From Actinomycetota bacterium (lineage in GTDB: Bacteria; Actinomycetota; UBA4738; G016210805): 29,514 bases of DNA. The notes beneath the pieces were generated by a model, which made no database searches, had not been told where the DNA came from, and worked only from the letters and a program-made list of their open reading frames with translations. The DNA lies in the NCBI GenBank assembly GCA_016210805.1, contig JACQTL010000179.1, forward strand, positions 1-29,514, read 5' to 3'. Of this stretch, positions 27,704-28,953 are shown in pieces. The position numbers and the translations under genes were made by a program. Position 1 is the first letter of the stretch. Every line of letters starts with the position of its first letter.

Positions 27704-28303
27704 ATGGCGCCTGTCCGTTGGATCCATCTCGCCAGCGCGCTCCTGTGGCCCGCGGCGGCGGCCCTCGGCCTGTGGAGGGCCCGGACGCTCCGTCGGCGGC
27801 GCTCCATGCGCCGCGTCCACGCCCTCATGGTCCTCGGCCTCGCCGTGGGGGCCGAGAGCCTGATCCAGGCCCTCTCCCCCAACCACGCCTCGGGCGCCGC
27901 CCACCTGGTGGCCAACCTGATCCTGGCCCTGGCCGGAGCGGCGGCCCTGTTCGTCCTCTCCGCCTACGGCACCGAGATGGCGAACGAGGAGCGAGTGCTC
28001 TACGCGCTCTCCCGCGGGCACCTCGGCGACGGGGGCGTGGAACGGCCGGCCCGGCCGCTGTCCCCACGGGAGATCGAGGTGCTCGGGTACCTGTGCCGGG
28101 GACTGAAGACCGATGAGATCGCCGAGCGCCTCTCGCTCTCGCCCCACACCGCCTCGACCCACGTCCGGAACCTGATGCGCAAGCTCGAGGTATCGAGCCG
28201 GGTCGACGCCGTCTCCTGGGCGATCCGCCACGGCCTCTACGACCCCGTGACCGGCAAGTCCGATCCGTCCCGGTTCGCGGGGGGCTCCCCTCGAGCCGGG
28301 TAG
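27704..28303 (+). CDS. Membrane-anchored LuxR/NarL-family transcriptional regulator (3 TM + HTH)
   Basis: Three hydrophobic segments followed by LSPREIEVLGYLCRG...EIAERLSLSPHTASTHVRNLMRKL. No receiver domain. Alternative start is 27686. Confidence 0.87.
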   Translation: MAPVRWIHLASALLWPAAAALGLWRARTLRRRRSMRRVHALMVLGLAVGAESLIQALSPNHASGAAHLVANLILALAGAAALFVLSAYGTEMANEERVLYALSRGHLGDGGVERPARPLSPREIEVLGYLCRGLKTDEIAERLSLSPHTASTHVRNLMRKLEVSSRVDAVSWAIRHGLYDPVTGKSDPSRFAGGSPRAG

Positions 28304-28318
28304 CGCGCCGGCAGCCCG

Positions 28319-28388
28319 ATTACCACCGCCTCGGTAGGCGCATTACCGCGTCCCTGCGATTGGCGAAGCCCTTCCCGGCCCCTACGTT
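28319..28388 (+). promoter_or_regulatory. Candidate LuxR/NarL-type operator (TACC-N8-GGTA plus an extra ATTACC half-site) and TTGGCG-N17-TACGTT promoter of the cupredoxin gene
   Basis: TACCACC-GC-CTCGGTA at 28321-28336 (7-2-7 geometry), ATTACC at 28319-28324 and 28342-28347, -35 at 28360-28365 and -10 at 28383-28388. Confidence 0.5.
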
Positions 28389-28458
28389 CGGGGGGCGGCC
28401 GGGTGGAGGCCCGGCCGCTTCCGCGCGCCCGGCCGAGGCCGGGAGGAAGGGGAGGTCG

Positions 28459-28953
28459 ATGCTTGGACGACGACGTTCGCTCCGGCGGATGGCCGCGCTC
28501 GTGGTGGTCGCGCTGGCCCTGGCGGCCTGCGGAGGCGATGGCGACACCGCGGCGGACGGTGAGGGCGACGGGGACGAAGGGGGAGCCACGCCGATCCACG
28601 TGAGCCTCTCCGAGTGGATGGTGGCCCCGGGCGAGATGGATGGCATGGAAGGGATGGGGGACATGGGCGGCTTCACGGCCCAGGCCGGTGAGGTCACCTT
28701 CGAGGTCCACAACGACGGGACGGTCCCTCACGAGCTCGTCGTGGTGAAGAGCGACCTGGCCCCCGGCGCCCTCCCGGTGGCCGGCGGCGCCGTGGACGAG
28801 GCGCAGGTCGAGGTGATCGGCGAGGTTGAGGAGTTCGAGGCCGGGACCATAGAGACCGGCACCTTCCAGCTCGACGCCGGGAGCTACGTCCTGTTCTGCA
28901 ACATCGCCGGGCACTACGAGCAGGGGATGAGCGCCCGCCTCACCGTCGAGTAG
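28459..28953 (+). CDS. Blue-copper (cupredoxin) lipoprotein
   Basis: ATG 28459 after GGAGG; lipobox LAAC; type-1 Cu ligands HE...FCNIAGHYEQGM (His, Cys, His, Met); Met-rich insert EMDGMEGMGDMGG. Confidence 0.88.
   Translation: MLGRRRSLRRMAALVVVALALAACGGDGDTAADGEGDGDEGGATPIHVSLSEWMVAPGEMDGMEGMGDMGGFTAQAGEVTFEVHNDGTVPHELVVVKSDLAPGALPVAGGAVDEAQVEVIGEVEEFEAGTIETGTFQLDAGSYVLFCNIAGHYEQGMSARLTVE

Follow-up and report, generated by a model that had tools for sequence, protein, structure and literature searches.

Transmembrane transcription regulators are widespread, and 27% of them have at least three transmembrane (TM) segments (PMC10269533). In ToxR, CadC and TcpP as well as in BcrR, extracellular sensing and intracellular DNA binding are combined in one protein that works from the membrane (PMC10269533, PMC3968067). 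ToxR and CadC are single-pass proteins with an N-terminal winged helix of the OmpR type and a folded periplasmic domain. BcrR, which has several TM helices and controls the adjacent operon, carries an N-terminal helix-turn-helix (HTH) of the XRE type and senses bacitracin. Closest to the regulator considered here among the characterised systems are DadR, HcdR and CadR, described for Eggerthella lenta (Coriobacteriia) by Dong et al. (2022), which are genetically proven LuxR activators with 10-12 TM segments and adjacent targets (PMC9734109). The present analysis concerns a 29,514-nucleotide stretch of DNA (contig JACQTL010000179.1, positions 1 to 29,514) from an Actinomycetota bacterium (assembly GCA_016210805.1), referred to as the window over its full length. 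It contains a gene predicted to encode a regulator with three TM helices and a C-terminal LuxR HTH (27704..28303, + strand), followed by a gene putatively encoding a blue-copper lipoprotein of the cupredoxin type (28459..28953, + strand).

The 3-TM regulator resembles the DadR family in that an N-terminal polytopic membrane domain is joined to a C-terminal LuxR/GerE HTH without a receiver domain, in its occurrence in Actinomycetota and in being encoded beside the gene or operon it probably controls. However, only the DadR family has been shown genetically to consist of activators responding to an extracellular small molecule, and its 10-12 TM segments compare with three in the present protein, the relatives of which, as collected with the membrane domain by HMMER, have only about 200 aa. 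A histidine triad, present here, does not form part of the description of that family. The targets in E. lenta are molybdenum or flavin reductases and the signals organic substrates, whereas the 3-TM regulator is paired with cupredoxin or oxidase genes and its signal is probably a metal or a redox state. Furthermore, the sections of the E. lenta report considered here define no operator for these proteins (PMC9734109), while a tandem operator could be defined in the present case from the comparison of homologous loci. Compared with ToxR, CadC and BcrR the polarity of the 3-TM regulator is reversed, the TM helices being N-terminal and the LuxR HTH C-terminal, and there is essentially no extracytoplasmic domain. 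An earlier note, made from the letters of this DNA, had called such a sensor undescribed. This applies to the 3-TM family, for which no Pfam or NCBIfam model of the membrane domain and no paper was found and which comprises four sequence clusters, but not to the general membrane-LuxR architecture, which was described in 2022 (PMC9734109).

Based on the comparison of homologous loci we propose that this membrane-bound one-component regulator binds a tandem operator and controls, probably by activation, the adjacent cupredoxin gene. The model as a whole appears to us about as likely to be right as wrong, and its parts differ in strength as discussed below. Those refuting conditions of the earlier note that are open to computation all turned out in favour of its interpretation.

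The open reading frame (ORF) of the regulator encodes 199 aa, and its start at position 27704 is backed by the alignment with its homologues (MAPVRW versus MSAVRW or MSLVRL). Residues 118-173 (28055..28222, + strand) match the Pfam family GerE (PF00196) with an E value of 2.6e-19 and 69 bits (cut-off 23.5), and all NCBIfam matches lie on the C-terminal HTH of NarL-type regulators. A match to the receiver domain REC (PF00072), as it is found in the response regulators of the NarL/FixJ type, was absent in both Pfam and NCBIfam. The AlphaFold2 (AF2) model, calculated with 23 homologues as input (predicted local distance difference test, pLDDT, 85.4; predicted template modelling score, pTM, 0.61), contains helices at residues 3-26, 32-57 and 65-102 followed by a four-helix HTH at 121-175. 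When the model was compared with the PDB by Foldseek, the HTH alone was matched and the membrane domain remained without a match. The HTH superposes on the NarL-DNA complex 1je8 (template modelling score, TMt, 0.86; root-mean-square deviation 1.1 Å) as well as on LiaR, VraR and GerE (TMt 0.8-0.9; 40% identity to LiaR and VraR). According to the Kyte-Doolittle hydropathy TM2 (1.66) and TM3 (2.35) are both clear, and TM1 (1.35) is marginal. The three TM helices fused to a LuxR HTH without a receiver, as claimed in the earlier note, are thereby borne out by the Pfam and NCBIfam searches, the AF2 model and the hydropathy. Judged by the GerE match and the hydropathy the protein is predicted to combine a DNA-binding domain with at least one TM region in one polypeptide, which defines the transmembrane transcription regulators.

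No further identity could be assigned to the membrane domain. Matches of the N-terminal part to DUF5368, DUF2499, DUF998 and the MAB_1171c family were all far below the respective cut-offs and were taken as hydrophobic noise, and the ESM Atlas returned no usable features or matches for residues 1-112. A derivation of the domain from a sensor kinase, namely that of the related two-component clade with canonical regulators described further below, was considered and rejected since no similarity was detected (E 23).

TM1 (residues 6-24; 27719..27775, + strand) contains the conserved residues H8 (codon 27725-27727), W15 and W24. It is followed by a first loop (residues 27-37; 27782..27814, + strand) with seven arginines and no acidic residue and by TM2 (residues 38-57; 27815..27874, + strand) with the non-conserved H39 (codon 27818-27820). 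The loop formed by residues 58-65 is uncharged; together with the start of TM3 (27884..27904, + strand) it carries H61 (27884-27886) and H67 (27902-27904) in the motif S-P-x-H-P-x-G-x-A-H. TM3 (residues 66-88) runs on through the juxtamembrane segment E-E-R-V-L-Y-A-L-S as one long helix to residue 102 (27899..28009, + strand), and this helix likely transmits the signal. Because the Arg-rich first loop should be cytoplasmic according to the positive-inside rule and the HTH has to be located in the cytoplasm, we infer an N-out/C-in topology, which would place H8, H61 and H67 all at the outer face of the membrane. The sensor domain is very small in the AF2 model, with about 90 aa and outer loops of 5-8 residues.

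A word-indexed search retrieved 22 further full-length relatives of the regulator with 51-71% identity, all of them from metagenome-assembled genomes (MAGs) or metagenome contigs of Actinomycetota, one being binned as Chloroflexota. The histidines are located where the earlier note had put them, namely H8 in WIHL, H39 in VHALM, H61 in the NH loop and H67 in AHLV, and three of the four proved to be conserved. H61 and H67 are invariant in all 23 sequences and H8 is kept in each of the 21 sequences that extend to the N-terminus, whereas position 39 is occupied by His in 2/23 and by Tyr in 17/23 sequences. The more remotely related member P0039 retains H61 and H67 but has Tyr in place of H8. Further conserved residues are W15, G22, W24, P62 and the juxtamembrane E96-R97-V98...L102-S103. 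In the HTH, the recognition helix of which carries the segment T-H-V-R-N, Cys131 at the end of the first helix (codon 28094-28096) is invariant (23/23) and specific for the 3-TM family, the related canonical response regulators having Ala at this position; a role of this Cys as a redox-sensitive residue in the cytoplasm is conceivable.

When 1.84 billion cluster representatives were searched exhaustively by HMMER with residues 1-112, only four clusters were obtained, the members of which all comprise 126-207 aa, and the membrane domain was detected in 3 of 201 genomes of the same order. It therefore appears to represent a very small family which is always joined to this HTH.

For the analysis of the gene neighbourhood, loci were gathered from species-representative genomes, metagenome contigs and exact-protein look-ups, which after collapsing the duplicates gave 19 non-identical loci. 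The gene pairing, which the earlier note had left to be checked, recurs among them: a cupredoxin gene is located directly downstream of the regulator gene in 17 of the 19 loci, or in 18 if COX2 is counted. In 11 loci (window, L002, L006, L082, L083, L084, L163, L165, L167, L168, L172) the downstream gene on the same strand encodes a lipoprotein cupredoxin of 146-177 aa homologous to that of the window. In six others (L003, L004, L005/L081, L085, L161, L170) it encodes a cupredoxin of 233-323 aa that begins with a TM helix, contains a long insert rich in Met, Asp and His and ends with the motif C-x6-H-x4-M. Wherever the contig extends, these larger forms head COX2-COX1(-COX3) operons, COX3 being seen where the sequence continues. 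In one locus (L175) COX2 follows directly, and in one (L001) the same-strand gene encodes a secreted PA-domain/LVIVD-repeat protein. No other gene is conserved across the neighbourhoods.

A maximum-likelihood tree calculated for the regulators implies at least three switches of the partner type, and L001 is nested in it among relatives paired with a cupredoxin. Since the association persists while the partner changes, the regulator is associated with cupredoxin and copper-oxidase genes in general and has kept this association through rearrangements. We consider a regulatory link between the 3-TM regulator and the cupredoxin gene to be very probable.

Two of the neighbourhoods show additional features. 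In L001 the operator described below is retained, with the downstream gene encoding the secreted PA-domain/LVIVD-repeat protein, of more than 650 aa, instead of a cupredoxin. In L168, and in the same manner in L169, the cupredoxin gene is followed after 135 nt by a same-strand gene encoding a sulfite-oxidase-like molybdopterin oxidoreductase of 501 aa (PF00174; L168:5358-6863), which hints at a role of the cupredoxin as electron acceptor in some lineages. A gene for a metal repressor of the CsoR family is located about 2 kb upstream in both loci (L168:1496-1786).

The putative operator is located directly after the regulator's own stop codon. Its first site, the perfect 7-2-7 palindrome TACC-N8-GGTA (28321..28336, + strand), occurs once in the window compared with 0.05 occurrences expected by chance. 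This palindrome, the conservation of which the earlier note had left to be checked, is found at the same intergenic position in the homologues, where it forms the first of two tandem 7-2-7 sites beside a conserved promoter. The second site (TACC-N8-GCGA; 28344..28359, + strand) is likewise conserved. It has a degenerate right half and abuts the -35 hexamer of the candidate promoter (28360..28388, + strand), which consists of TTGGCG (28360-28365), a 17-nt spacer and the -10 hexamer TACGTT (28383-28388). The additional ATTACC, the promoter hexamers and the distances of roughly 66 and 50 nt to the transcription start site (TSS) are present as the earlier note had given them. The operator is larger than it was described there, ATTACC (28342-28347) being the left arm of the second site. 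With the TSS of the window placed near 28395 on the basis of the candidate promoter, the second TACC starts at about -51 and the centres of the two sites lie near -66.5 and -43.5.

The full conserved element reads TACC-N8-GGTA, 6 nt (7 nt in the window), TACC-N8-G(G/C/T)(G/T)A and then T(G/T)G. The right arm of the second site runs into the -35; most loci have GGGA as this arm, L167 has GGTA and the window GCGA. When 20 loci were scanned (L005 and L081 being near-duplicates), 14 contained TACC..GGTA..TACC with all 12 of the 12 fixed positions at the same intergenic position. The consensus persists over the 19 non-identical loci despite diverged flanking DNA. In a sub-clade (L001:4299-4445, also L163 and L165) a third 7-2-7 site overlaps the stop codon of the regulator gene, 32-33 nt upstream of the first site.

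A strict scan for E. coli-type promoters and terminators between 27550 and 29050 gave no match, which is expected for high-GC DNA; the promoter assignment therefore rests on its conservation across the homologues. In most homologues with a recognisable promoter a -10-like TAnnnT is found 39-40 nt past the second TACC. In L172, L084, L082 and L168 (operator-promoter stretches L172:3360-3435, L084:1602-1678, L082:1335-1412 and L168:4669-4746) 6-7 nt separate the -10 hexamer from the start codon, the position of which was confirmed by aligning the proteins; this implies that the cupredoxin transcripts of these loci are leaderless. Leaderless transcripts are common in Actinobacteria. The TSS and the centres of the operator sites could thus be fixed independently in these four loci, and the centres fall near -43.5 and -65.5. 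The distance between the two centres is 22-23 bp, corresponding to roughly two helical turns. In the window, by contrast, the cupredoxin gene is preceded by a leader of about 65 nt that includes a Shine-Dalgarno region (GGAAGGGGAGG).

In 18 loci the 200 nt ahead of the regulator gene were searched for an autoregulatory 7-2-7 site with at most one mismatch; none was present, and the operator is therefore assigned to the downstream gene. Activators classically bind where the proximal site is found here, at about -43.5 over a weak -35, and it seems probable that the regulator activates rather than represses.

The ORF of the target gene, starting with the ATG at 28459, encodes a lipoprotein of 164 aa with the lipobox LAAC (Cys24; 28528-28530, + strand), a Met-rich insert at residues 59-71 (28633-28671, + strand) and the predicted type-1 copper ligands H91 (28729-28731), C147 (28897-28899), H152 (28912-28914) and M157 (28927-28929, all + strand). 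The AF2 model has a core pLDDT above 94 and shows the beta-sandwich fold of the cupredoxins. Its best Foldseek match is auracyanin (6kol; E 4.5e-8, TMt 0.71, 24% identity), followed by azurins, the cupredoxin domain of EfeO and rusticyanin. On the level of the sequence the resemblance to known cupredoxins is weak: PDB 6kol is matched with an E value of 0.016 and with the ligand columns aligned, Pfam SoxE reaches 26.6 bits (cut-off 21) and Copper-bind stays below its cut-off. The set of predicted copper ligands (His...Cys-Xn-His-Xn-Met) and the lipobox Cys are invariant in the 11 lipoprotein homologues. The blue-copper lipoprotein with intact type-1 ligands and a Met-rich loop that the earlier note had recognised was confirmed by the lipobox, the ligands and the AF2 and Foldseek results.

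The target thus shares with the cupredoxins of the auracyanin and azurin type the fold and the His/Cys/His/Met type-1 site, and like auracyanin it would be anchored to the membrane. In its Met-rich segment it resembles cupredoxins of copper stress such as CopI (PMC7558416). An assignment to CopI itself was rejected due to scores of 20.5 bits versus 280 (NF051440) and 12.8 versus 200 (NF047895), the match being confined to the C-terminal ligand loop. The target was also considered as an orthologue of sulfocyanin (SoxE). It passes the cut-off of Pfam SoxE but fails that of TIGR03094 (19.9 versus 168.4 bits), and it is best regarded as a generic cupredoxin relative, not a sulfocyanin orthologue, as far as can be judged from these profiles.

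The Met/His/acid-rich inserts of the family differ in position: in the window the first two strands are separated by the insert, some homologues have it in the Cys-His loop, and the oxidase-linked forms have a long central one. These differing positions suggest that such inserts were acquired repeatedly and independently. Met/His/acid-rich segments are typical of proteins handling Cu(I). The window and L167 have 4 residues between the Cys and His ligands, whereas in L163, L165 and L083 this loop is rich in Glu/Met/His and reaches about 24 residues, which is unusually long for a type-1 copper site.

The proposed mechanism is as follows. The one-component regulator would span the membrane with three helices, its N-terminus outside and its NarL-type HTH in the cytoplasm, TM3 running on as a long helix. 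Probably as two dimers, it would bind the tandem 7-2-7 operator just past its own stop codon. From the promoter-proximal site, which abuts the weak -35 in a class-II-like position at about -43.5, the downstream gene would most likely be activated. The product would be a membrane-anchored, auracyanin-like blue-copper lipoprotein with a Met-rich insert, and in other lineages a Met-rich cupredoxin heading a COX2-COX1-COX3 oxidase operon. The likeliest input would be extracytoplasmic copper bound by the His triad H8/H61/H67 at the outer face, which presumably forms one site. In this way the cell would match the production of copper-dependent or copper-handling respiratory proteins to the copper supply.

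Copper as the signal is proposed tentatively, its chance being judged as slightly under even. It is suggested by the fact that the target always needs or handles copper, by the three histidines (the H-P-x-G-x-A-H loop plus H8) being the only conserved polar residues of the outer face, and by the recurrence of Met/His/acid-rich inserts in the target homologues. Several points weigh against the proposed model. Since neither Met nor Cys is conserved in the membrane domain, Cu(I) is not an obvious ligand, and a three-His site would suit Zn(II), Ni(II), protons or an axial heme ligand equally well. If the marginally hydrophobic TM1 did not span the membrane, H8 would not be located at the outer face. 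Seven loci are tied to terminal oxidases and one to a molybdenum oxidoreductase, which fits an O2 or redox signal equally. The overlap of a site with the -35 would also suit a repressor, and the same genome encodes a canonical NarL-type regulator of the same half-site specificity, which is a possible binder of the operator. Furthermore, the homologues all originate from related Actinomycetota MAGs or contigs and the loci are not fully independent. No RNA run was found to contain this DNA, which occurs only in DNA metagenomes of groundwater and soil.

In the alternative that survives best, the input of the same module would be the redox state, O2/NO or the quinone pool. Heme b ligands or the lining of a quinone site would be provided by the conserved histidines, for example H8 and H67, from one monomer or from both partners of a dimer, and an alternative cupredoxin-dependent respiratory branch would be switched on. 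It is known that 3-TM subunits such as SdhC and SdhD hold heme through single His residues. Such a role would agree with the operator preceding a cupredoxin-COX2-COX1(-COX3) operon or COX2 in 7 of the 19 loci, with the sulfite-oxidase-like molybdenum enzyme that comes after the cupredoxin in L168/L169 and with the relation of the target to auracyanin, an electron carrier. The conserved Trp and His residues of the membrane domain, which has neither Met nor Cys among its conserved positions, and the invariant, family-specific Cys131 of the HTH point in the same direction. However, the position of H61 and H67, in a short outer loop rich in Pro and Gly and in the first helical turn of TM3, points to an exposed site and not to a buried pocket for a cofactor, and no known heme or quinone motif was recognised. 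The Met/His-rich inserts in nearly all targets also point to copper handling and not to electron transfer alone. We regard redox sensing as unlikely, though it deserves consideration.

An indirect input would be conceivable as well. The membrane domain could be a tether which receives its signal from a partner, with the copper-loaded or apo form of the cupredoxin or the oxidase acting as co-sensor, or the HTH could be freed by regulated proteolysis. The anchor of the target lipoprotein lies on the same side of the membrane as the His triad, the sensor domain is as small as stated above, and partner-dependent control is known for other transmembrane regulators such as TcpP/TcpH (PMC11323476). 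However, the conservation of specific residues (H8, H61, P62, H67, W15 and W24) exceeds what a passive anchor would need, the regulator of L001 retains the operator although the cupredoxin is replaced by an unrelated protein, and no protease or anti-factor gene is conserved nearby. Control through a partner or a protease seems somewhat less likely still than redox sensing. A role of the outward histidines as proton sensor, such as His residues have in other acid sensors, by which the respiratory or periplasmic copper protein would be tuned to the external pH, would be in line with three conserved His at the inferred membrane-water interface and no other conserved metal ligands, but it is very improbable given that the conserved targets, cupredoxins and oxidase operons, are not specifically related to pH and no acid-resistance genes are located nearby.

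Whether the signal is copper or not, the model assumes that the 3-TM regulator and no other protein binds the operator. NarL binds 7-2-7 sites, and TACC-N8-GGTA has that geometry (PMC4549865; PDB 1je8). With the NarL/FixJ regulators NarL, DosR/DevR, LiaR and VraR the 3-TM regulator shares the HTH fold, 7-2-7 half-sites of the type TAC...GTA (PMC4549865) and tandem sites of which the proximal one is located at the -35. It differs from them in lacking a receiver, a phospho-acceptor Asp and a cognate kinase, the input module being an integral membrane domain.

The T-H-V-R-N helix and the TACC operator are shared by the 3-TM family and a closely related clade of canonical actinobacterial regulators. 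The members of this clade, REC-GerE proteins the loci of which were fetched through the similarity of the HTH only, have an HTH 47% identical to that of the 3-TM regulator. In 29 of 149 of these loci (within L007-L160) the tandem element TACC-N8-GGTA-N8-TACC starts 30-50 nt past the stop codon of the canonical regulator gene. The TACC half-site thus tracks the HTH clade whichever input domain is attached, which is indirect but independent evidence that the HTH of the 3-TM regulator reads TACC. The regulator of L003 (P0017) has T-H-I-R-H in place of T-H-V-R-N, and both left half-sites of its operator are TCCC (L003:4632-4680). This single case may represent covariation of protein and DNA, which would fit a direct readout.

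The genome from which the window originates (G000; 2.84 Mb, 84% complete) contains four matches to the tandem pattern compared with none for the reversed control: the site of the window, two shortly past a kinase-regulator gene pair of contig C231 and one on C132. The two sites on C231 (7174-7201 and 7612-7639; L178/L179) flank an ORF of 111 aa and precede a gene for a polytopic membrane protein. The pair itself consists of a histidine kinase and a NarL-type regulator ending in ...THVRNILxKLxVHSKLEAV..., and many genomes show a panB-kinase-regulator context. These loci look like an uncharacterised conserved actinobacterial regulon sharing the TACC half-site. The match on C132 (9524-9551; L177) is intergenic, with the end of a ligA-like gene on one side and, on the other, the start of an opposite-strand gene for a PAS histidine kinase. 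It may be due to chance since an estimated 0.5 matches would be expected for the size and composition of this genome.

It could accordingly be argued that the operator serves mainly a canonical NarL-type response regulator, in this genome that of the C231 pair, and that the 3-TM protein does something else; the tandem half-sites downstream of the canonical regulator genes and their double occurrence on C231 would be in line with this. However, the operator accompanies the 3-TM gene in essentially all 19 loci in differing genomic contexts, and its spacer has 6-7 nt versus 8 nt in most sites of the canonical clade. The 3-TM gene is present in only 3 of 201 genomes of the order, so that the site follows this gene and not the widespread regulator. 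Use of the operator mainly by the canonical regulator thus appears highly unlikely, and we suppose that the 3-TM regulator is its binder.

If copper is indeed the signal, the proposed copper-responsive module would resemble several known systems. In the PetR/PetP system of cyanobacteria (10.1101/2020.07.31.226407; PMC7896320) a membrane component also links copper to the transcription of a blue-copper carrier, plastocyanin. However, PetR/PetP is a two-protein system of the BlaI/BlaR type in which a membrane protease degrades a soluble repressor, whereas the 3-TM regulator is a single polypeptide with a LuxR HTH and without a protease. CopRS and CusRS (PMC3140484, PMC10100754) likewise couple extracytoplasmic copper sensing to the transcription of envelope copper proteins, but they employ a histidine kinase, an OmpR-type regulator and a phosphorelay, none of which is present here. 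Extracytoplasmic copper sensing is so far known via two-component kinases or via the BlaR-like PetP. A review from 2024 distinguishes at least 12 structural families of one-component metallosensors, and LuxR/GerE proteins are not mentioned in the parts of it drawn on here (PMC11672702).

The 3-TM regulator may therefore be the first metallosensor of the LuxR family, a phosphorelay-free protein which binds Cu(II) at the interfacial residues H8, H61 and H67 and activates a cupredoxin-dependent respiratory or copper-handling branch directly from the membrane. We put this forward as a possibility that is more doubtful than copper sensing as such. If it applies, the induced lipoprotein cupredoxin might in turn act on the sensor, at the membrane face they share.

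A protein of 200 aa which reads copper or redox state at the outer face of the membrane and itself binds a defined operator would, if the proposal is true, be among the simplest transmembrane signalling devices known. The module is unusually tractable, since operator, promoter, target and three candidate ligand residues have been defined by comparative genomics, and if metal-responsive the regulator would be a compact candidate for a biosensor part. It would show that three TM helices suffice for a minimal form of the membrane-LuxR design, which is known with 12 TM helices from regulators of gut Coriobacteriia. Furthermore, it would give a first handle on the regulation of cupredoxin-linked terminal oxidases in uncultured Actinomycetota of groundwater and soil.

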